Shown: positions 2,281 to 57,945 of the stretch, piece by piece
Numbering within the stretch: the first letter of the stretch is position 1
Layout of the letters: every line of letters starts with the position of its first letter
Assembly (NCBI GenBank): GCA_964016885.1
Contig: OZ024763.1
Coordinates: forward strand, 13,454,001 to 13,518,000
DNA length: 64,000 nucleotides
Direction of reading: 5' to 3'
From: Eledone cirrhosa
Taxonomy: Eukaryota
The notes under the pieces: model-generated
Databases searched by the model: none
What the model was told of the DNA's origin: nothing
The model's input: only the letters and a program-made list of their open reading frames with translations
Position numbers and translations under genes: made by a program

Positions 2281-5200
2281 ATCATCATCATCATCGTCAT
2301 CGTTTAACGTCTATCTTCCATGCTAGCATGGGTTTAGTCGGTAATTGTCCCGCGTGAGGCAAGAGTGGTTGTCTTGCTCGCATAGGACTGTCTGGCGGGT
2401 TTTCTACAGCTGGATGCCCTTCCTAACACCAACCACATTTACAGTGTGGACTGGGAGATTTTTACCGTGTTACCTACACGGCCACATTACAGCGTGGACT
2501 GTGTGTTTTTTGTCGTGACACCTACACGATCTCATTTATTGAGGACTGGATGTTGTGGCACCAACATAACTTTATAGAGAAAGGGGTAGTGTAGATGGGG
2601 TTGGGAGTAGGGGTAGTGGGATGGAGGTGTATTTTTGGTTAGGAGGTGCCTAGTGTAGGTTTCGCTTTGTACTTAGGCAAGGCGGGTTTTCTGTATTACT
2701 ACGTAGCGCCAAAGATCTCGGTCCAGTGACATTGTCTTGGAGAGGTGTAAGTATGCAAGGTCGGAATTTATCAAATCGTCCCAGGTTTTTCTGGGTCTGC
2801 CTACTCCGTAGCTTCCATCTATTTTGATCGACTTGCACTTTTTTATACAGCTGTCGTCTTTCATGCGCATCACGTGACCATACCAACGTTGTCTTCTCTC
2901 GAGTAAACAGCATCTGATCCCTCTTATTCCTAATTTCTCAGTTCATTTATGCTTTGCCGTTCACATATATTACTATTACACATCCAACGGAGCATGCAAG
3001 CTTTGTTCCTCTCCAGTCTGCGCAGATCCTCTGCACACAATGCCCATATCTCACTGCCATGTAACATTGCTGTTCGTATGCAGGCATCATACAGTCTGCC
3101 TTTCATTTTTAGGGAGAAACCTTTAGCGGCCAATAGTGGTATAAGCTCTCTGAACTTTTTCCATCCCGTTCTGACTCTAGCTACTGTACTTTCAGAGACC
3201 CTCCCCCACTGCTGATTTTGTCACCCAGGTAACGGAAGGTGTCCACTATTTCTATAGAACCATCTGTGCAATGGAAGGAGCTAGTATCCTGTGGGCACTT
3301 GCTACCACTTATTGCACCTGGGCACCGGCCACATATAAAATCTATGTTCTTAGTTAGTTTACCTGTGATCCCACTACATCTTTTATGTACCCATACTTTG
3401 CATTTGGGACATAAAATGGAGTTTCTGCCTACTCCTTTCCTACACACTGAGCATGGCCATTGCCCAGATGGGACCGGTGCCCTATTTTCCTTCCTACATA
3501 CTAGAACTTTAGTCTTAGACAAGTTAATTTTAAGGCCTTTTGATTCTAGGCCATGCTTCCAAGTTTGGAATTTCTTCTCTAGTTCAGCCATTGATTCAGC
3601 TATGAGCGTTAGATCATCTGCGTATAGAAGTTCCCATGGGCAGCCGGTCTTGAACTCCGCTGTTATAGCCTGAGGGGCAATAATAAATCGGAGGGGGCTA
3701 AGAACAGAACCCTGATGAACACCGACTTTTACATTAAATTCTTCACTATATTCGTTGTTAATTCTAACCTTGCTGCCTGTTTCTTTATACATGGCTTGTA
3801 TAGCTCTCGCGAGCCATTCATCAACACCTAGTTTTCTAAGAGCCCACCAGATAATGGAGCGGGGGACTCTGTCAAAGGCTTTCTCCAAGTCAACAAAAGC
3901 TAAGTAAAGAGGTTTACTTTTAGCTAGGTACTTCTCGTGTAGTTGTCGTACAAGGAAAAGAGCGTCTGTGGTACTTTTACCTGACACAAACCCAAACTGC
4001 ATTTCATCTAGATCAATTCGCTCTCTGATTAGTTGTGCTATAACTTTTTCTGTGACCTTCATGACCTGGTCAATTAATTTAATACCTCTATCGTTTCCCC
4101 TATCTAGGGCATCTCCTTTACCCTTGTAGCAGTTAATGATGATGCTGCTATGCCAGTCATTTGGTATGACCCCATTCTGTATGACTTGGTTTACTATCCG
4201 GGAGACCATAGTGTGTCCCACTGATCCAGATGCTTTCAGTATTTCAGCAACTATCTCCGAAGGCCCAGCTGCTTTGGCTGTCTTCATATCTTTAATTGCC
4301 TTACTTATTATACTACCTTCAACTTGTACTGCTGGATCGATTTGGGGCAGACTATCTTTTTCCCACTTATTCAAAGCTACCTTCTTATCAGTATCAGTGA
4401 TGGCAAGTACACCATCATCATTACGGACACACTTCTCCCTGACAATATCACAGTTTTCCTTGACACATTGTCTAGCAATCCTGAACACCTCACGTTTTTG
4501 GTCCTCGCGTTGTAGAACATGCTTGAACTTTCTTTCCCCTGCTTCCCTTCTTGCAAGGTACAGTCTCCTAGCTTCCCTCCTGGCCACTCGATAGTGTTCT
4601 CTACTTCCCCCATCCCGCCATACTTTCCAAGCTTGCTTTTTGGCTTTGATTGACTCCTCCACCTTACTGTTCCACCACCATGTTACTCTCCTCCTGCCTA
4701 TAGGTCTGCTCCAGCCACAGATTTCATCTGTCACTTTCAGCAGGTTAACTTTCAGGAATTCCCAGTTCCTCTATACAGTACGTCTCTAATCGATCTTCCT
4801 TACTGTCAAAAGCATCAAGTAATAAGCTTTTAAATTTGTTACTGGCTGTGGGGTCCTTTAACTTCCATATTCTTCTTCTCAGGGTGGTCCTCCTCTGTTG
4901 TCAAGTACGTCTCGACCTGACTATGAGGTCACTAACTATGAGGCTATGTTGGGAGGTGCATTCTTTGTGGAGGGATTTAGTGTTTACAACCGACACTTTG
5001 TCACATGTGGTAAGGATATAATCTGACTGGCGTGTTCCCCTGATCTATAGGTGATCAAGTGATTGTCTCGTTTTTTGAACTTTGTGTTGCAGATAGTTAT
5101 GTTATTTGCGTCACAGGATTCCAGAATTCTGAAGCCTTCCTCATTTCTGGTACCAAACCCGTAGCCTCCATGGATTCCGTCATAGCCGTCACAATATTGT

Positions 5201-5645
5201 CCAACATGACCATTTAGGTCGCCAGCGATAATTATGTAGTCACTGTCAGTTAGTTGGGAGGTAGTGAGCATTAGCGACTCATAGAATCTGTCTTTTATAA
5301 CGCCAGGCAGTCCAGATTGGGGTGCATAAGCAGATATTATTGTCACAGTAGTTCTATTTAGGACAAGTCTTATTTTGATTATTCTGTCGTCCACTATTTA
5401 CGTCAATTACCTTATCTACCCAATTTTCTGCTAACATAATTCCTACCCCACCCAGCCCATTTTCATTTCCCACCCAGAAAAGTTTATATCATCGTTTTTT
5501 ACCCACAATGAATCTAGCAGACCCACCCCTCCACCTGGTCTCTTGGACACAACAAGCATCAACTTCCTTACGTTCAAGCATCTCTACAACTTCATTAGAG
5601 CGACCTTTTAAAGTGCCTACATTCATGGTACCAACTCTGAAGTTT
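2281..5645 (-). mobile_element. Near full-length degenerate RTE-clade LINE (APE endonuclease, RT, PHD-like Cys cluster) with (GAT)n tail, inside a WDR33 intron
   Basis: ORFs 4984-5394 (SAYAPQ, GDLNGHVG), 3181-4734 (DLEKAFD, QGSVLSP, YADD), 2930-3133 and 2673-2873 (GRPRKTW); several frameshifts. Confidence 0.93.
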
Positions 5646-5878
5646 TGGATTTTGTTACAAAGTGTTTCAGTTTGCTTGAAGCATAGTAGAATAAGAAATA
5701 CAAATTTAAATATTTGGAAGCCCTACAATGCATGCAAGATTAAAAGTGCCAAGGTAATAGGAGTTATAAAAAATTCTATCATCATCACACTTTTCACAGT
5801 CTTTTATTCTCTATAACGCCTTTTGCCTTGGCACTTATAATCTTGCCTGCATTGTTGGGCTTCCAAATATTTAAACTT

Positions 5879-7092: not shown

Positions 7093-7317
<225 letters not shown>

Positions 7318-9258: not shown

Positions 9259-9532
9259 GAAAATGGACGTTAAACGAAGATGATGATGATATATACCCAC
9301 ACACATCTACACATTTATTGAAAATTATTAGAGTGCAAGCCCAACTACCAACTAATCAATATTTAATAACACACACGATATAAATATATATATATATATA
9401 TATTTATTAAAATAACACAAAGTTTAAGCAAAGAATCGCTGCTTCCACCTAACGGGATCTTCTGAAACTATATATATACGTGTGTGCGTGTGCGCGTGTG
9501 TGTATATATATGTATATATAGCTATTACTTAC

Positions 9533-9637
9533 CGTTAAAACAAATATTGGGCATCTGAACTTGTTGGTTGATGTACGGACAAATTTTGTGACAACACAGT
9601 TCATTGGATTGTGAAGCACGCTGAGTGGTGGCACTAA
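9533..9637 (-). CDS. WDR33: WDR33 coding exon 3 ([35 protein letters not shown])
   Basis: cccaacag|TTA...ACG|gtaagt, 105 nt; matches the conserved [17 protein letters not shown] motif. Confidence 0.93.
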
Positions 9638-10312
9638 CTGTTGGGAGAGAAAGAGGCACAGATTAGTAATAGCATTGACTGGGGGGAGACAGAGGCATAG
9701 ATTAGTGGTGGTACTGACTGGGGGCGAGAGAAAGAGGCACATAGATTAGTAGCGGCACTGACTGGGGGGAGACAGAGGCACAGTTTAGTGGTGGCATTGA
9801 CTGGGGGGGAGACAGAGGCACAGTTTAGTGGTGGCATTGACTGGGGGGGAGACAGAGGCACAGATTAGGGGTGGTACTGACTGGGGGGAGACAGAGGCAC
9901 AGATTAGTAGCGGTACTGACTGGGGGGAGACAGAGGCACAGATTAGGGGTGGCACTGACTGGGGGGGAGAGAAAGAGGCACATAGATTAGTAGTGGCACT
10001 GACTGGGGGAAGACAGAGGCACAGATTAGGGGTGGTACTGACTGGGGGGGAGAGAAAGAGGCACATAGATTAGTAGCGGCACTGACTGGGGGAAGACAGA
10101 GGCACAGATTAGGGGTGGTACTGACTGGGAGCAGACAGAGGCACAGTTTAGTGGTGGCACTGCCTGGGGGGAGAGAAAGAGGCACATAGATTAGTAGCGG
10201 CACTGACTGGGGGAAGACAGAGGCACAGATTAGGGGTGGTACTGACTGGGAGCAGACAGAGGCACAGTTTAGTGGTGGCACTGACTGGGGGGAGAGAAAG
10301 AGGCACATAAAT
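9624..10312. repeat. 39-45 bp minisatellite, 17 units, built from the WDR33 exon 3 acceptor
   Basis: Minus-strand unit ctaatctgtgcctctgtctccccccag|tcagtgccacca; the last unit is the real acceptor. Confidence 0.93.
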
Positions 10313-10675
10313 CAGTGGGATTTGAACTCAGATCATAAAGGGACGTAACTATGCTGGAAAGCATGGTGTCCGACCCTCTACCAATACTACTTAATAATTG
10401 TTTCTACTTTTGGCACAAGGCCAGTAATTACACCCAGTGCATTACTGGTACTTTATTTTATCGACCCCGTAAGGATGAAAGGCAAAGTTAACCTCAGCGG
10501 GATTTGAACTCAGAAAGTAAAGGACCATAATGGGAGTTAGTTATATTACTAAATCCTTCAAAATTCTTGATTATTTGATTTCATTAGAAATATGGGAAAG
10601 AAATAGATAAATAAGCAAGTTAAGAAGGACCCCAATAAAACCCAATCATTCTATTTATGGTAATGAAATACTTAC

Positions 10676-10744
10676 CCCTTCTTGGAAAAGGCAGTCTGGT
10701 TGAATGGCACGGAAATCACGATGGTCCCTTTGATAAAGTCGATT
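10676..10744 (-). CDS. WDR33: WDR33 coding exon 2 (NRLYQRDHRDFRAIQPDCLFQEG)
   Basis: Not in the ORF track; read manually. tttttgtag|AAT...GGG|gtaagt, 69 nt, in frame; resembles vertebrate NRIWQRDQRDMRAIQPD. Confidence 0.92.
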
Positions 10745-13307: not shown

Positions 13308-13634
13308 CTCGAGATATTTCACAACAGCCGAATTATAATCGACAGTTTTCCTGTGGACAGCCTTCCTCATACGTTTGCCGTCAAACATAATACCCTGGCT
13401 GGCCATCATTTTCTGTTGCATGTATGTACGTTGTTGTAATTGTTGTTGTTGCTGCTGCTGTTGCTGTTGTTGTTGCTGTGATCCCTGCGGAGGCATCATG
13501 CCGCCGGGGCCTTGAGACATGGCCATCGGAGGTGGCATATTGAATCTAGGAGGCATGTTAGGTGGAGGGTGGTTCAAGTTGGGTAGCTGTGGAGGAGGCC
13601 CCGTCATTGGGGGCAAAGACACTGGCATCATCAT
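13308..13634 (-). CDS. WDR33: WDR33 coding exon 1 (Pro/Met/Gln-rich N-terminus plus [18 protein letters not shown] motif)
   Basis: Translation ends ...[27 protein letters not shown], matching the WDR33/Pfs2 N-terminal motif. Acceptor ttttccag with exon starting at 13655, ATG at 13634, donor GAG|gtattc at 13308/13307. 109 codons, phase 0. Confidence 0.93.
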
Positions 13635-13660
13635 CTTGAAGAGTTTGGGTGTGACCTGGA

Positions 13661-13765
13661 AAAAGAGATTTAAATAGAAAAATAAAGATTTAAATAGAAA
13701 AATAAAGATTTAAATAGAAAAATAAAGATTTAAATAGAAAAATAAAGATTTAAATAGAAAAAAAA
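13661..13765. repeat. 20-bp tandem repeat x5 abutting the WDR33 coding exon 1 acceptor
   Basis: (taaatagaaaaataaagatt)n. Confidence 0.9.
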
Positions 13766-14081
13766 ACAATTTAAATTATTAATACATCCATTCTGTGAAG
13801 TCGGCAATCAAATGAAGATAATACAGACTAGAGAGGAATCTTAGAGACTTGCAGAGGACGTGACAATCTCTCTGGTGTTAACACCACAATAGAATGCACC
13901 CAGTACACTCTGTAAAGTAGTAATACAGATCCCTATTCTGTTGGCTTCATTAATTTTCGATATAACACCATATTGGCAGGCTGTCCTCAAATAGGGTTTT
14001 CTATATTCTCTATCTCCTATCTTCCATTATAAGTTTGGGTTCAATGTAATCCTGAAACCTGTTACATAATTCTGCAGATGA

Positions 14082-45401: not shown

Positions 45402-47460
45402 AATTATTGTGTACAGTGCTCAGGTGCACTACAACTCGTCAAAGGTGCATGTATAGTACATAGAATAATATACAAATGTCAGGGAAGTGAATAGTGTATG
45501 AGTCATGATATACATGTGTGTCTGTGTATGGAGGGGGAGCATTAGGTGTAGTGTTGGCGAATCTCGGGAAGCATGGAGGTTTTAAAGGATGCAGTGTCTC
45601 GACAGCTAACAACTGATGCAGGTAGTTTGTTCCATGGAGGTTTTAAAGGATGCAGTGTCTCGACAGCTAACAACTGATGCAGGTAGTTTGTTCCATGGAG
45701 GTTTTAAAGGATGCAGTGTCTCGACAGCTAACAACTGACGCAGGTAGTTTGTTCCATGGAGGTTTTAAAGGATGCAGTGTCTCGACAGCTAACAACTGAC
45801 GCAGGTAGTTTGTTCCATGGAGGTTTTAAAGGATGCAGTGTCTCGACAGCTAACAACTGACGCAGGTAGTTTGTTCCATGGAGGTTTTAAAGGATGCAGT
45901 GTCTCGACAGCTAACAACTGATGCAGGTAGTTTGTTCCATGGAGGTTTTAAAGGATGCAGTGTCTCGACAGCTAACAACTGGTGCAGGTAGTTTGTTCCA
46001 TGGAGGTTTTAAAGGATGCAGTGTCTCGACAGCTAACAACTGATGCAGGTAGTTTGTTCCATGGAGGTTTTAAAGGATGTAGTGTCTCGACAGCTAACAA
46101 CTGACGCAGGGAGTTTGTTCCATGGAGGTTTTAAAGGATGCAGTGTTTCGACAGCTAACAACTGACGCAGGGAGTTTGTTCCATGGAGGTTTTAAAGGAT
46201 GCAGTGTTTCGACAGCTAACAACTGACGCAGGGAGTTTGTTCCATGGAGGTTTTAAAGGATGCAGTGTCTCGACAGCTAACAACTGATGCAGGTAGTTTG
46301 TTCCATGGAGGTTTTAAAGGATGCAGTGTCTCGACAGCTAACAACTGACGCAGGGAGTTTGTTCCATGGAGGTTTTAAAGGATGCAGTGTCTCGACAGCT
46401 AACAACTGACGCAGGGAGTTTGTTCCATGGAGGTTTTAAAGGATGCAGTGTTTCGACAGCTAACAACTGACGCAGGGAGTTTGTTCCATGGAGGTTTTAA
46501 AGGATGCAGTGTCTCGACAGCTAACAACTGACGCAGGGAGTTTGTTCCATGGAGGTTTTAAAGGATGTAGTGTCTCGACAGCTAACAACTGACGCAGGGA
46601 GTTTGTTCCATGGAGGTTTTAAAGGATGCAGTGTTTCGACAGCTAACAACTGACGCAGGGAGTTTGTTCCATGGAGGTTTTAAAGGATGTAGTGTCTCGA
46701 CAGCTAACAACTGACGCAGGGAGTTTGTTCCATGGAGGTTTTAAAGGATGCAGTGTTTCGACAGCTAACAACTGACGCAGGGAGTTTGTTCCATGGAGGT
46801 TTTAAAGGATGCAGTGTCTCGACAGCTAACAACTGATGCAGGGAGTTTGTTCCATGGAGGTTTTAAAGGATGCAGTGTCTTGACAGCTAACAACCGATGC
46901 AGATAGTTTGTTCCATGGAGGTTTTAAAGGATGCAGTGTCTCGACAGCTAACAACCGATGCAGATAGTTTGTTCCATGGAGGTTTTAAAGGATGCAGTGT
47001 CTCGACAGCTAACAACTGATGCAGGTAGTTTGTTCCATGGGGGTTTTAAAGGATGCAGCGTCTCGACAGCTAACAACTGATGCAGGTAGTTTGTTCCATG
47101 CTTCAGCATCTCTGAGCGTGAAAAAATGTTTCCGTAAGTCATGGGAGCTGTGCTGTTTTCTGACTTTGTGGGCATGCCCACGTGTGTTAGACACATGGAA
47201 ATCAAAAAGGTACTCAGGGTTGTTGTTAGCAAGATGGTTAATAATTTTGTGGGCGTTTACCAAGTCAGCTGCCAGGCGTCGGAGCTTCAATGTATCCATG
47301 CCCAGAGAAGCAAGGCGTTCAGAGTGTGGTAGATGCCTGATGGAGGGTATTCGCTTGGTTGCACATCTCTGAACAGTTTCCAGGCGGTCAATGTTCTCAG
47401 CAAGATAGGGCTTCCAGACTGGTGCTGCAAATTCTAAGTGTGGCCGCACCATAGCCATGA
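45367..47460 (-). mobile_element. CR1/L2-type LINE 3' fragment with (ATT)n tail and internal 61-bp array
   Basis: VRPHLEFAAPVWKPY...LETVQRCATKRI; same family as 59210-60765. Confidence 0.85.
45572..47100. repeat. 61-bp tandem repeat, about 25 copies, derived from the LINE 3' end
   Basis: Unit ggaggttttaaaggatgcagtgtctcgacagctaacaactgatgcaggtagtttgttccat; present once in the sister copy at 59341-59405. Confidence 0.95.
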
Positions 47461-48519: not shown

Positions 48520-50097
48520 TCCAACACCCTAACCACAAGGCCACACATGGTAATGCAATCAGTTAACCCTTCTCTAATCCAACACCCTACCCACTAGGTC
48601 ACACATAGTAACGCAGTGTCAGTTAACCCTTCTTTATTACAACACCCTACCCACTAGGCCACACATGGTAACCCAGTCACCATTAACCCTTCTCTAATCC
48701 AACACCCTAACCACTAGGCCACACATGGTAACCCAGTCACCATTAACCCTTCTCTATTCCAACACCCTAACCACTAGGCCACACATGGTAACCCAGTCAC
48801 CATTAACCCTTCTCTATTCCAACACCCTACCCACTAGGCCACACATGGTAACCCAGTCTCTATTATCTCTTCTTTATTACAACACCCTACCCACTAGGCC
48901 ACACATGGTAACCCAGTCTCTATTAACTCTTCTCTATTCCAACACCCTACCCACTAGGCCACACATGGTAACCCAGTCTCTATTAACTCTTCTCTATTCC
49001 AACACCCTAACCACTAGGCCACACATGGTAACCCAGTCACCATTAACCCTTCTCTATTCCAACACCCTACCCACTAGGCCACACATGGTAACCCAGTCAC
49101 CATTAACCCTTCTCTATTCCAACACCCTACCCACTAGGCCACACATGGTAACCCAGTCTCTATTATCTCTTCTTTATTACAACACCCTACCCACTAGGCC
49201 ACACATGGTAACCCAGTCTCTATTAACTCTTCTCTATTCCAACACCCTACCCACTAGGCCACACATGGTAACCCAGTCTCTATTAACTCTTCTCTATTCC
49301 AACACCCTAACCACTAGGCCACACATGGTAACCCAGTCTCTATTATCTCTTCTTTATTACAACAGCCTACCCACTAGGCCACACATGGTAACCCAGTCAC
49401 CATTAACCCTTCTCTAATCCAACACCCTACCCACTAGGCCACACATGGTAACCCAGTCTCTATTAACTCTTCTCTATTCCAACACCCTACCCACTAGGCC
49501 ACACATGGTAACCCAGTCACCATTAACCCTTCTCTAATCCAACACCCTAACCACTAGGCCACACATGGTAACCCAGTCTATTAACTCTTCTCTATTCCAA
49601 CACCCTACCCACTAGGCCACACATGGTAACCCAGTCTCTATTAACCCTTCTCTAATCCAACACCCTAACCACTAGGCCACACATGGTAACCCAGTCACCA
49701 TTAACCCTTCTCTAATCCAACACCCTAACCACTAGGCCACACATGGTAACCCAGTCTCTATTATCTCTTCTTTATTACAACACCCTACCCACTAGGCCAC
49801 ACATGGTAACCCAGTCTCTATTAACCCTTCTCTAATCCAACACCCTAACCACTAGGCCACACATGGTAACCCAGTCTCTATTAACCCTTCTCTAATCCAA
49901 CACCCTAACTACTAGGCCACACATGGTAACCCAGTCACCATTAACTCTTCTCTAATCCAACACCCTAACCACTAGGCCACACATGGTAACCCAGTCTCTA
50001 TTATCTCTTCTTTATTACAACACCCTACCCACTAGGCCACACATGGTAACCCAGTTTCTATTATCTCTTCTTTATTACAACACCCTACCCACTAGGC
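48520..50097. repeat. 60-bp tandem repeat, about 26 copies, ending just upstream of C3orf33-like exon 2
   Basis: Unit ccaacaccctacccactaggccacacatggtaacccagtcaccattaacccttctctatt, with several variant subtypes. Confidence 0.95.
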
Positions 50098-50142
50098 AAC
50101 AAACCTTCTCCTTACTACCATTTACCCTTCTCTATTGCACAG

Positions 50143-50257: not shown

Positions 50258-51172
50258 ATTGCTTTTACTTTAGGCACAAGGCCGGCAATTTTGGGGGAGG
50301 GGAAAGTCGGTTAAATCGACCCCAGTACATTACTGGTACTCTATTTTATCGACCCCCGTAAAGGTGAAAGGCAAAGCTAACCTCGGCGGGATTGGCACAC
50401 ATCATGGTCCGACTCCTATCGATACTGCCAATCCATTGCTCTTGGTTTCTGATTTAGGCACAAGGTCATCAATTTGGGGAGGAGGAGGAGAAAGTCGATT
50501 AAATCGGCTCCAGTACGTTACTGGTACTTTATTTTATCAACTTGAAAAGATGAAAAGCAAGGTTTATCTTGGCAGGATTTGAACTCAGAAAGTAAAGGGC
50601 CGTAACTCTATGCCGCAAAGCATATTGTCCGACCCTCTACCGAGTCTGCCAATCTGCTGCTCTGTCCTGAGCATAATATAATTGTTTCTACTTTAGGCAC
50701 AAGGCCAGCAATTACCCAGTGTATTACTGGTACTTTATTTTATCGACCCCCGTAAGGATGAAAGGCAAAGTCAACCTCGGCGGGATTTGAACTCAGATCG
50801 TAAAGGGACGTAACTGAGCATAATATAATGGTTTATAATTTAGGTATAAGGCCAACATTTTGTGTGGAAGGGGAAAATCTATTAAATCAACCTCAGTGCA
50901 TTACTGGTACTTTATTTTATCGACCCTATAAGGATGAAAACCGAAGGTAACCTCAGCAGGATTTGTGTTCAGGGTGTAAAAGGACATAATTATATGCCAC
51001 AAAACATGTACGAAGCTCTACTGATTCTACTGCCTAACCACCACCCTAGGAATAATTGTTTCTACTTTTGCCACAAAGACATAAATTTGAACTCAGAAAC
51101 TAAAGGGCTGTAACTCTATGCCACAAAGCATGTTGTCTGACTTTCCACCACTACTGCCAATCCACCACACTT
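50258..51172 (-). mobile_element. Tandem cluster of 4-5 SINE family B copies filling C3orf33-like intron 2
   Basis: Repeated ggcacaaggcc...tactggtactttattttatcgacccc...gatttgaactcag. Confidence 0.85.
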
Positions 51173-51208
51173 GGAATAATATTATTTTTTTTTATTATAT
51201 TTTTTCAG

Positions 51209-51353
51209 TTTTCTAAATTCTCCAAGGTGGAGGAGGTTCCGATGAAGTTTATCCAGAAGAATGTGACACTGCAAGGAACGGTGAAGAAAATTGAAGAGGA
51301 GGGGAAAATATTGATTGACCATAAACCAATAGTAAAACTACCATGGCACGAAG
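51209..51353 (+). CDS. C3orf33: C3orf33-like exon 3 (FSKFSKVEEVPMKFIQKNVTLQGTVKKIEEEGKILIDHKPIVKLPWHE)
   Basis: ttttcag|TTT...GAA G|gttagt, 145 nt, phase 1; matches the KFxxxxxxPxxFIxxxVxLxG..H.P motif. Confidence 0.88.
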
Positions 51354-51827
51354 GTTAGTGGTGAAAACTTTGATATGGTAAGAGGAAGGAGACAGATGAG
51401 GGTCTTAACCCTTGAGTATTTACATTAATTTATATTTACTATTAGCTGCAGTATCCAGTAATACTCGGAAAGGTGGGGTTATTCGCAGTTCCCAGAGTGC
51501 ACCTGAAAATGCTAGCGACCCTGGGTGCCCATACTGGATTTTCAATAGCAACCTTTGCTTGGTGTGTTTATGGCAGATCAATTTTTTTGTATGGAATTAT
51601 CAATAGCTGTTTAAGTCATAACTCCTTCTTCCATCCAGCTTTCCTTCTCCATTGTAAAGATGTCCTTAGGGGTTCCATTATTGATTTTCATTGAAATCCA
51701 ATTAGCCAGTCCTGTTTCTGAATATTAGCTTAACATGTGTGTAAAATTTCATCAGGATCTGGTTATACACAGATACACAGGCAGAAATTATTATATATAT
51801 ATATATATATATATTATACATATATAT

Positions 51828-52162
51828 ATCATCATCATTTTACGTCCGCTTTTCCCTGCTTGCAAGGGTGGGACGGGAACTGATTCTGGCTTGATTTCTA
51901 CAGCTGGATGCCCTTCCTAACACCAACCTCATTTACAGTGAGTGCTGGGTGCTTTTTTTGTCGTGGCACCTCCACGACCACTTTGCAGTGGAATGATATG
52001 GATCCCAGTCCCTAGCATCTCATTTCTACAGCTGAGTAAACTGGAGCAATGTGAAATAAAGTGTCTTGCTCAAGGAAACAACACATCACCTGGTCTGAGA
52101 ATTGAACTCACAACCTTTCGATTGCAAGGCCAATGCTCTAACCACTAAACCATGTGCCTCCA
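51828..52162 (-). mobile_element. SINE family A, full length
   Basis: Same consensus; another copy at 58878-59207 (-). Confidence 0.88.
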
Positions 52163-52711
52163 TATATATATATATATATACACACACACAGAAATATCCA
52201 CGGTTACTTGTGGGGTCTAGTCTGCATGAAGAAGAAACGATCGTAAAGCAGTGAAGTATATTTCTAATGACTTGAATTTTTATTTCATTGTTTCAACTTA
52301 TATATATATATATATAGTTGTTTCTACGTTAGGCACAAGGCCAGCAATTACCCAGTGCATTACTGGTACTTTATTTTATCGACCCCCGTAAGGATGAAAG
52401 GCAAAGTCAACCTCGGCGGGATTTGAACTCAGATCGTAAAGGGATGTAACTGAGCATAATATAATGGTTTATAATTTAGGTATAAGGCCAACATTTTGAG
52501 AGGGGAGGGGAAAATCCTTGGCAGGATTTGAACTCAGAAAGGCAAGGGCCGTAACTCTATACGTCAAAGCATGGCGTCCAACCCTCTACCAATACTGCCA
52601 ATCCACCGCCCTAATTACTATCACTATATATATATAGTGATAGTAATTAGGATATTGTGATAAATGTTGTCCAATTCTATTCATTCACTTTCTCTCTCTC
52701 TCTCTCTCCAG

Positions 52712-52866
52712 ATAAACCGTGCCTCCCCATTCGGTTAGCATTCCTATCAATAGGTCCACAGAGTAGACAGTGGTTATTGAACAACATACAGAATCAACAT
52801 GTTTGGTTCCAACCAATTAAGATTTCAAATGGAGGTTTATCTATCGACTGCCTAGTTTATGAAAAG
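52712..52866 (+). CDS. C3orf33: C3orf33-like exon 4 (DKPCLPIRLAFLSIGPQSRQWLLNNIQNQHVWFQPIKISNGGLSIDCLVYEK)
   Basis: (ct)n-ccag|AT...AAG|gtaggt, 155 nt; phase compatible with exon 3; WL...WFQ motif. Confidence 0.87.
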
Positions 52867-53500
52867 GTAGGTCTGTGAATTGACTAGTGCTTACATAAAT
52901 GTTTATGTTGATTATGTGATGCGCATGGAGGATGACCGCTGGGTAAAGAAGTGCCAAGAAATCCCAGTAGGAGGAAGACGCAGTAGAGGTAGACCACATA
53001 AAACATGGGCGGAGGTGGTGAGAACAGACCTCAGATCGCTGAAGCTCACAGAGGAGATGACGAAGGACTGTGACAAGTGGAGCGATGCTGTGTTCAATAG
53101 GAGACGTTCAACCCTTGCAAGCAGGGAAAATGTTTAGATATACACAGGTGTTGTTATGTTTACAGAAATGTTTACACAGGTGTGACTATATGTTGACTAA
53201 TTTTTTACAGAAATGTTTACATGAGTGTAACTCTATATGTTGACTAATGTTTACACATGCGTAACTATATGTTAACTAATTTTTACAGAAATGTTTACAC
53301 AAGGGCAATTCTATATGTTGACTGAAATGTTTACAGAAAGGAAGTCCTAATGTTTACATAAACACAGGTCTTTCTATGTTTATAGAAATATTTACACATA
53401 TGTATCTCCCTATATTGACTGTAATGTTTACATAATCAAAAGACTAAGAAAAAGAAGAACGATTTATGTTGATTATTAAGTAGCACTCCATTGGTTATGG

Positions 53501-53823
53501 CAGAGGTTTTCAAACTTTTTGGGCCACTGCCCTCCTCATGGCTATGTAATACCCTCAGCCCCACCCTCAACCTTATTTCCTCAGAGACCTGCCTACATGA
53601 AAATTGTGAATAATATATAATAAATAAAATCGTTAATTGATATATAATAGATAATATAATATATACTATGTATAAATAAATATTATATATTTTTTATTTT
53701 ACTATATTTATATATAATATGTATCATTTGATATTTAATATACTATCATATCATCTCTACCACCCCCTGGACCGTCTGAACATATCCCTGGGAGGGCGGT
53801 AGCACCCACTTTGAGAACCTCTG
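53501..53823. mobile_element. hAT-type MITE
   Basis: TIR cagaggttttcaaa / tttgagaacctctg; 8-bp TSD ggttatgg / agttatgg (7 of 8 match). Confidence 0.8.
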
Positions 53824-55102
53824 AGTTATGGTGACGAGTGTTCCAGTTGATCTGGGAAATTAACCTGCAAGTGGCTGATAATTCCTCAGGCATATATACC
53901 CTTAATGTAGTTCTCAGGGAGATTCATCCTTATGCAGAATGTGACAAGTCTGTCCCTTTGAATTACAGGTACAACTCACTTTTGCCAGTTGAGTAAATTG
54001 GAGCAATGTGAAATTAAGTGTCTTGCTCAAGGATGTGATGCCCTACCATAAAAATGAATATTGTTTGTTTTTAATATGTTCAATACCTTCACCCCTCACC
54101 CAAGTCTTCAGCCCACACTAAAGACTGGTCGTATAGGTGTCGCTACAAAAGTACCCAGTCCACACTGTAAATGTGGTTGGCGTAAGGAAGGCTCTGTATG
54201 AGCAAGACATGGTCACCTGATTTGACTTGTCTGACAACGGGGCAACTCGTCTAACCCATCTTAGCATGGAAAATAGATGTTAAATGATTTTGATGATTAT
54301 ATATATATATCATCATCTTCGTTTAACGTCCATTTTCCACGCTAGCATGGGTTAGACGGGAGTTGTCTCACTTGAGACAAGGCTGGTCGGGTGACCGTGT
54401 CTCACTCATATAGGATTATCTGGCAGGTTTTCTATGGCTGGATGCCCTTCCTAACACCAACCACATTTACAGTGTGGAACTGGGAACTTTTTACCGTGTT
54501 ACCTACACGGTATATATATATATACACACACACACTGTAAATGTGGTTGGTGTTAGGAAGGGCATCTAGCTGTAGAAAACCTGCTAGATAGTCCTATACG
54601 AGCGAGATACGGTCACCTGACCAATCTTGTCTCAAGAGAGACAACTCCCGTCTAACCCATGCTAGCGTGGAAGATGGCCATTAAACAATGACGGTGATGA
54701 TGATGATGATACACACTGTAATGTGGTTGGTGTTGGGAGGGGCATCCAGCTGTAGAAACCAAGCCAGAAACAGTTCTGTATGAGCAAGAGATGGTCATCT
54801 GACCTGGCTTATCTCACAACGGGACAACTTGTCTAACCCATGCTAGCATGGATATTAAACAATAATTGTTTCTACTTTTGGCACAAGGCCAGGAATTACC
54901 CAGTACATTACTGGTACTTTATTTTATCGACCCCGTAAGGATGAAAGGCAAAGTTAACCTCGGCGTTTCATCCTTACGGGGGTCGATAAACAATAATGAT
55001 TATGAGTCAATGTCAAACATTATCACCTTCATTGTGATGTATCTACTTCCACATTGTTGCTGTTGCTGTTGCTGTTAATGATAGGTGTGTTTTCTTTTGT
55101 AG

Positions 55103-55375
55103 CATCTTTGGCGAAAGGTCAACATTAACGAGAAGATGCTGATCTCAGGTAACAGCAAGCTCGAGGAGAATATCAACCTTCCCGTATATTCGAAATATAC
55201 GAAATATGTGGCCGACCTTGTCAAACTGGAGAGCAAAGCTGACAAGAAAGGTGTTGGAATCTGGGCTCAGGAGAAAGAAGACAAGGGGTTACTGAAAATA
55301 ATCAAAAACTTTTTCAAAATGGCTGTAGATGGCTATAAATCTCTGAGCAGCAAAATTTCTCAAAAAGCAAGCTAA
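55103..55375 (+). CDS. C3orf33: C3orf33-like last exon (HLWRKVNINEKMLISG...ESKADKKGVGIWAQE...stop); SNase/thermonuclease-like C-terminus
   Basis: ttttgtag|CAT, in frame with ORF 55136-55375; NxNExxL..G and E..A.KKG.GIW motifs. Spliced CDS is 717 nt (238 aa plus stop). Confidence 0.88.
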   Translation, partial: HLWRKVNINEKMLISGNSKLEENINLPVYSKYTKYVADLVKLESKADKKGVGIWAQEKEDKGLLKIIKNFFKMAVDGYKSLSSKISQKAS

Positions 55376-57482: not shown

Positions 57483-57945
57483 CACAATATATCTAGGACT
57501 ACATTATCTAATGTCCTTTCTTGGTGTTCACACCGTTTAACTAGGACTACATTATCTAATGTGTTCTTTCTTCTTACTGTTTTTGACAGTGTATCTAAGA
57601 CTACATTATCTAATGTGTCCTTTCTTCTTACTGTTTTTGACAGTGTATCTAAGACTACATTATCTAATGTGTCCTTTCTTCTTACTGTTTTTGACAGTGT
57701 ATCTAAGACTACATTATCTAATGTGTCCTTTCTTCTTACTGTTTTTGACAGTGTATCTAAGACTACATTATCTAATGTGTCCTTTCTTCTTACTGTTTTT
57801 GACAGTGTATCTAAGACTACATTATCTAATGTGTCCTTTCTTCTTACTGTTTTTGAAACAGTGCATATGGGACTCCATTATCTAATGTGTCCTTTCTTCT
57901 TGTTGACACAGTGTATCTAGGACTACATTATCTAAAGTGTCCTTG
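57483..57945. repeat. 54-bp tandem repeat, about 8 copies
   Basis: Unit ctaagactacattatctaatgtgtcctttcttcttactgtttttgacagtgtat. Confidence 0.92.

Follow-up and report, generated by a model that had tools for sequence, protein, structure and literature searches.

WDR33 gene and its genomic neighborhood

The window (the whole 64-kb stretch of DNA that was analyzed) is animal DNA rich in AT microsatellites and contains many minisatellites besides the one discussed here. A minus-strand gene spans positions 1 to 13.7 kb and is identified by protein similarity as WDR33/PFS2. The exon at 1505-1654 matches all 218 candidate proteins, many of them named WDR33, and the closest protein, P0001, which clusters with Sepia pharaonis PFS2, matches this exon at 96%. 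A coleoid cephalopod is accordingly the most likely host, and the repeat landscape is reminiscent of an octopus. In the order of transcription, the first coding exon (13308-13654), located like those that follow by tblastn of P0001, encodes a Pro/Gln-rich N-terminus; it is followed by the 69-nt second coding exon (10676-10744; donor GGG/GTAAGT), the 105-nt, phase 0 third coding exon (9533-9637; donor ACG/GTAAGT), the fourth coding exon (7204-7299), which is joined to 9533 in a spliced contig, and a further coding exon starting at 1654. Because an acceptor lies directly before the first coding exon, at 13654, an untranslated exon is likely to be located upstream. What the original prediction called exon 3 is the third coding exon, a numbering that probably leaves out this untranslated exon.

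Within the first coding exon, a CAG/CAA repeat (13430-13479, minus strand) encodes a polyglutamine run longer than that in P0001, and the spliced contig ends about there. The intron between the 7204 and 1654 exons harbors a broken LINE-like retroelement (3181-5722, minus strand), with ORFs that, judged by eye, resemble an endonuclease and a reverse transcriptase. On the plus strand, exon-like ORFs at 51104-55375 represent a second gene, which we take to resemble C3orf33; the last of these ORFs has a weak staphylococcal nuclease-like Pfam match (E 0.005, below the cut-off).

Tandem copies of the acceptor in front of the third coding exon

The 1038-nt intron between the second and third coding exons holds a minus-strand tandem array at 9624-10318 (TRF: period of about 39, 16.6 copies, 81% matches, score 815), for which TRF also reports a 121-nt higher-order row. 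The array consists of 17 units, 39-44 nt apart, that is, 16 decoys and the unit carrying the real acceptor, 9637. Each unit includes a branch-point-like CTRAW motif, a pyrimidine tract, CAG and a copy of about 14 nt of the exon start, the template of which is the first 14 nt of the third coding exon (9624-9637). The decoy minisatellite proper (9638-10318), which ends at the real acceptor, contains about 27-31 nt of intron end and about 12-14 nt of exon start per unit, with decoy exon starts at 10284, 10245, 10206, 10163, 10124, 10085, 10041, 10002, 9958, 9919, 9880, 9840, 9800, 9761, 9717 and 9678. All 16 decoys retain CAG and, 24-29 nt upstream, the branch-like motif (CTAAT in 11, CTAAA in four and CTGAT in one); 9637 alone runs on into the 105-nt exon. 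The array unit has no other match anywhere in the 64-kb window.

The central structural claims of the original prediction, namely, 16 extra tandem copies of a complete 3' splice site, every unit with the full set of signals, and the real acceptor as the most downstream unit, are therefore borne out, with a spacing marginally narrower than the predicted 39-45 nt and a single CTGAT beside the predicted CTAAT and CTAAA. The accompanying statement that the spliceosome must bypass 16 upstream AGs needs correction: in 13 units, a second AG is located 4 nt downstream of the main CAG, bringing the array to 29 AGs, and the wording assumes scanning from the upstream donor.

Upstream, the array abuts pieces of a dispersed repeat (10319-10520, minus strand) that has 38 further blastn matches in the window and that we describe as SINE-like on account of this dispersal. 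A truncated copy of this repeat runs straight into the first unit of the array and likely supplies its CTGA. Because the two sequences merge, what the intron originally looked like above the branch point cannot be recovered from the window.

Comparison of the authentic acceptor with the decoys

The authentic 3' splice site (9638-9666, minus strand) comprises CTAAT, the A of which at -26 is the predicted branch nucleotide, followed by a pyrimidine tract and CAG, and is the site used by the spliced contig. Its CTAAT straddles a unit junction, in agreement with the original prediction; that it was created by the junction is a separate matter, given that the merger of the upstream end of the array with the truncated dispersed repeat makes a junction-made motif and the original branch point indistinguishable.

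The real site differs from all 16 decoys at three positions, with AA versus CC at -5/-4 and T versus C at exon position +2. In terms of tract composition only, the decoys contain 5-6 T among 17 positions and the real site 6 of 17, whereas three other acceptors of the WDR33 gene are T-richer than every acceptor of the array (10-12 of 17). By T content, CAG and branch motif, no clear weakness sets the decoys apart from the real site, so that the choice between them would depend on context. Concealment of the decoys by RNA structure is rejected: the array RNA folds no better than shuffled sequences (z -0.35).

The CAG is invariant among the decoys, but so are 24 of the 39 unit columns and 9 of the 37 triplets. 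The invariance of the decoy CAG and branch motifs does not exceed that of the remaining unit sequence, and selection on the splice signals, whether favorable or adverse, is not apparent. Strong conservation of the alternative site, which would be expected of an NMD control element, was not observed, and the unit differs between species (see below).

Several other roles for the array were considered and ruled out. A micro-exon ladder or recursive splicing would call for donor sites, and the array lacks AG/GT, its best donor match being 6/9; an intronic poly(A) signal is excluded by the lack of AATAAA in the array; and a coding role is excluded by the absence of the repeat ORFs from homologues.

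Acceptor usage and predicted products of the decoys

When the reading frame is continued from donor 10676, all 16 main decoys and all 13 second AGs lead to a premature stop. The nearest decoys, 9678 and 9717, would add 41 and 80 nt, respectively, and shift the frame, precisely as predicted. The in-frame AG at 9757 does lead to TAA, as had been pointed out, but the main decoys 9880, 9919 and 9958 are in frame as well and reach a stop at 9787. Main-decoy stops fall 101-493 nt upstream of donor 9533, and the decoys would define exons of 146-752 nt compared with the authentic 105 nt. For all 16 decoys, the distance from the stop to a downstream junction would exceed 50 nt, as in NMD-controlled isoforms, a property that chance alone also predicts.

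Evidence on splicing comes from one contig in one sequencing run (hereafter X4), which carries the same species label as the window but derives from a different sample; its library type is not on record, and its status as RNA rests on the spliced contig itself. This 574-nt contig (depth 16) matches 9533-9638 without a mismatch; at one loose end it continues with the 3' end of the 10676 exon, and at the other with the beginning of the 7299 exon. The contig is therefore a spliced message in which donor 10676 is joined to acceptor 9637. No X4 contig covers 9639-9720, a stretch that would be included in any decoy isoform, but this carries no weight as evidence, given that contig assemblies drop minor isoforms and that NMD would hide still more of them. 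The share of sampled words found in X4 (0.20) is explained by exon words (11%) and dispersed-repeat words (16%). Among the 134 proteins compared, 55 lacked the anchor pair and were left unscored; the 26-residue spacing across the 10676/9637 junction is kept in 78 of the 79 homologues with both anchor motifs.

These observations bear on the possibility that the array leaks, that is, that the nearest decoys (9678 and 9717) capture a few percent of the splicing events, the products are removed by NMD, and longer alleles slightly lower the level of WDR33 mRNA, making the array an accidental splicing QTL. The decoys look like usable acceptors, and all of them give stops that would trigger NMD. Furthermore, two human minisatellites that repeat the donor rather than the acceptor (6-16 and CBS IVS13) show additional use of the two nearest pseudo-sites (PMC1557585), which makes some leak plausible in WDR33, too. 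However, the sole spliced contig uses 9637, and for acceptor-side repeats of amphioxus, RT-PCR revealed no aberrant mRNA (PMC3087553, PMC3902484). Low-level decoy use masked by NMD is thus plausible, whereas the leak as a whole, with its effect on WDR33 mRNA, appears unlikely. A more demanding version, under which the nearest decoys divert a measurable fraction of WDR33 pre-mRNA to NMD, allele length sets the dose, and the array has been kept in at least two cephalopod species for this reason, strikes us as quite improbable.

The array in sequencing reads and in a second species

None of the 23 runs listed is on record as RNA, and the contigs of four runs were compared over 9518-9720 only. One of the four, X6 from organism C, yielded no contig there, an outcome that carries no evidential weight. 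Three runs from one sample, possibly the source of the assembly, contain 0.42-0.62 of the 112 sampled words. In a short-read DNA run from this species (X1), one contig with a depth of 4.8 covers both the exon and the last decoy (9518-9705), and the contigs that represent units reach a summed depth of up to about 73; the resulting ratio of about 15 is rough and does not measure copy number.

A run from a second species, produced in a separate study (X5, organism B), yielded an exon contig with four substitutions, all synonymous; with about 25 synonymous sites, dS between the two species is near 0.18, with a wide error. This contig stops 19 nt above 9655, at CACTAAT. Two short contigs cross a unit junction in the same run, with a summed depth of 209 compared with 20.9 for the exon, a ratio of about 10 that is likewise rough and not a copy number. 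The unit of organism B ends differently (..CACAG/TTG), its end being closer to the real acceptor. It is very likely that organism B carries its own version of the array, the contiguity of which with the exon lies beyond the contig evidence. Accordingly, the array likely predates the split of the two species, with recurrence as the alternative.

Given that the array was not spanned by any single contig, that the best DNA run contains only 0.62 of the sampled words, and that all five contigs over 9669 in that run differ from the window, the array could be suspected to be a collapsed or expanded assembly error. Several lines of evidence speak against this explanation: the unit variants are ordered and non-random, the X1 contigs reproduce them and in one case connect the exon to the last decoy, and in the second species, the depth of the unit is about tenfold that of the exon. 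The occurrence of units in short-read DNA from both species speaks for a real array and not an assembly error, and we regard an artefact as extremely improbable. The exact number of 16 decoys may nevertheless be specific to the assembled allele.

At 9669, within the last decoy unit, all five X1 contigs read G, whereas the window has A (plus strand); this mismatch points either to a different allele or to a wrong base in the window.

Turnover of the array and the case for selection

Unit 2 has the same sequence as unit 5, and unit 3 the same as unit 6, reflecting a 121-nt duplication of three units; a single change separates unit 12 from unit 13. Divergence is greatest in units 16 and 17, with an average of about seven changes relative to the others. 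By the comparison of units, this is a pattern of ordinary, recent minisatellite turnover that left out the edges.

The original prediction went further and proposed a copy-number rheostat coupled to NMD, or a sink for U2AF/SF1, that is, an element selected to tune an essential polyadenylation factor. Splicing-coupled NMD control is common among RNA-processing factors, and the host gene is one; the presence of the array in two species and the stop codon that follows every decoy could be read in the same way. However, stops are what chance alone predicts after random insertions, the splice signals show no excess conservation, the units differ between the species and turn over like those of any minisatellite, and the window contains many other minisatellites. 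As for the sink, 16 C-rich tracts per pre-mRNA would be negligible compared with the cellular U2AF. Moreover, the spliced contig uses 9637, and the same arrangement has been published as harmless to splicing (PMC3087553, PMC3902484, PMC2630376). The proposal of a rheostat or sink is therefore unsupported, and we consider a selected element highly improbable.

Relationship to known 'mirage' repeats

Minisatellite-like duplications of intron/exon boundaries that carry AG/GT signals, termed mirages, have been described in amphioxus. Amphioxus mirages leave splicing undisturbed by RT-PCR, vary in length among haplotypes and undergo concerted evolution from which the edges are excluded; in BflGb6, the duplicated segment consists of an intron's 3' end together with the 5' part of an exon (PMC3087553). 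Troponin C and PGBD5 were subsequently added to the mirage hosts (PMC3902484).

The WDR33 array resembles the amphioxus mirages (Adh3, troponin C, the globins BflGb6 and BflGb9, and PGBD5), which are tandem boundary copies with splice signals and a normal mRNA. Its unit spans the intron/exon boundary, the authentic boundary forms the edge unit, and the extra units are intronic, the same geometry of intron 3' end plus exon 5' part as in BflGb6; the unit size falls within the Adh3 range of 10-72 bp. Regular splicing at the authentic site is represented by one contig, a type of evidence blind to minor isoforms. Concerted evolution with divergent edges is apparent from the identical interior pairs and from the species-specific unit end in organism B, and parallels the amphioxus repeats, with their unit identity of 81-100% and divergent edge units. 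Unlike the amphioxus repeats, the array resides in a cephalopod mollusc, includes 17 units compared with 3-6 in BflGb6, and was seen in two species; length polymorphism among haplotypes is known in amphioxus, whereas the WDR33 array is known from contigs that do not span it.

Human genes provide further parallels. In CBS 844ins68, a 68-bp duplication at the intron 7/exon 8 boundary, the copy with the intact exon is strongly favored (PMC2630376). As in WDR33, the acceptor region and exon start are duplicated and the mRNA is normal; the difference is one extra copy in CBS versus 16 in WDR33. The human donor-side minisatellites (F7 IVS7, 6-16/IFI6 intron 2, CBS IVS13, LMNB2 and PDGF; PMC1557585) are similar in that the edge unit spans the exon boundary, the splice site is reiterated into the intron, the exon-adjacent site dominates, and the pseudo-sites have the potential to function, but repeat the 5' splice site. 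In the literature searched, which left most subscription journals outside its coverage, a mirage-type repeat in a cephalopod or in WDR33 was not found.

Taken together with the geometry and turnover of the array, these parallels make membership in the known mirage class the most likely assignment. We conclude that the array is probably a near-neutral mirage minisatellite, with the exon-adjacent acceptor in use, rather than a regulatory element.

Proposed origin and maintenance of the array

The near-neutral mirage minisatellite could have originated from a single duplication of a piece of about 40 nt across the acceptor, probably via a short CACT/ACT microhomology that the branch-point region shares with exon positions 10-14. 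Slippage or unequal crossing-over would then have expanded and homogenized the copies, with the edge units remaining the most divergent. Whenever an acceptor is duplicated in this way, the complete exon stays with the last copy.

With an intron of 1038 nt, the 3' site is more likely to be chosen across the 105-nt exon than by scanning from the upstream donor. The last acceptor would likely win by exon definition, whereby U1 at the strong, near-consensus donor that follows after 105 nt, along with enhancers in the exon body, would recruit U2AF/U2 to the nearest 3' site; the decoys would lack an adjoining exon body. In any rare decoy product, the next junction would follow the stop by at least 101 nt, and NMD would likely remove it. 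With the last copy used and the rare decoy products cleared, the array would cost little, and this low cost would allow it to persist and drift. Exon definition, NMD clearance and neutrality are likely, proposed parts of this account. What counts against it is that the array lasted, or arose again, across two species separated by four synonymous changes in about 25 sites, on an essential gene.

The near-neutral mirage reading adds cephalopods to the hosts of a known repeat class, and indicates that an essential gene can tolerate an array of 16 decoy acceptors, even beyond the separation of two species. The array also offers a natural substrate for the study of exon definition at the 3' splice site, in that its 17 acceptors are nearly identical and differ in their distance from a single donor; in practice, it can mislead gene annotation and short-read mapping. 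It points to no new biology unless use of the decoys is found. Were the array indeed a leak that sets the WDR33 dose and was kept for this reason, a function would be known for a mirage repeat for the first time, and its alleles would form a natural series for the study of distance competition among 3' splice sites.

Other tandem repeats in the window

A 54-nt x 7.5 array at 57541-57944 (plus strand) has a unit with CTAAT, a pyrimidine tract and CAG. It is located beyond the stop of the plus-strand gene, with no exon found after it, and its likeness to an acceptor is probably a chance resemblance. Two large minisatellites are located at 45572-47100 (61 nt x 25) and 48520-50101 (60 nt x 26); neither was seen to span a splice site, and the former appears to have been taken out of a LINE-like element, which carries on at 47100. 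Within WDR33, a T-rich tandem repeat with a 20-nt unit (13666-13776, minus strand; 5.5 copies with 96% matches) stops about 12 nt short of the first coding exon's acceptor, on its upstream side; the tract region is repeated, but not the AG.
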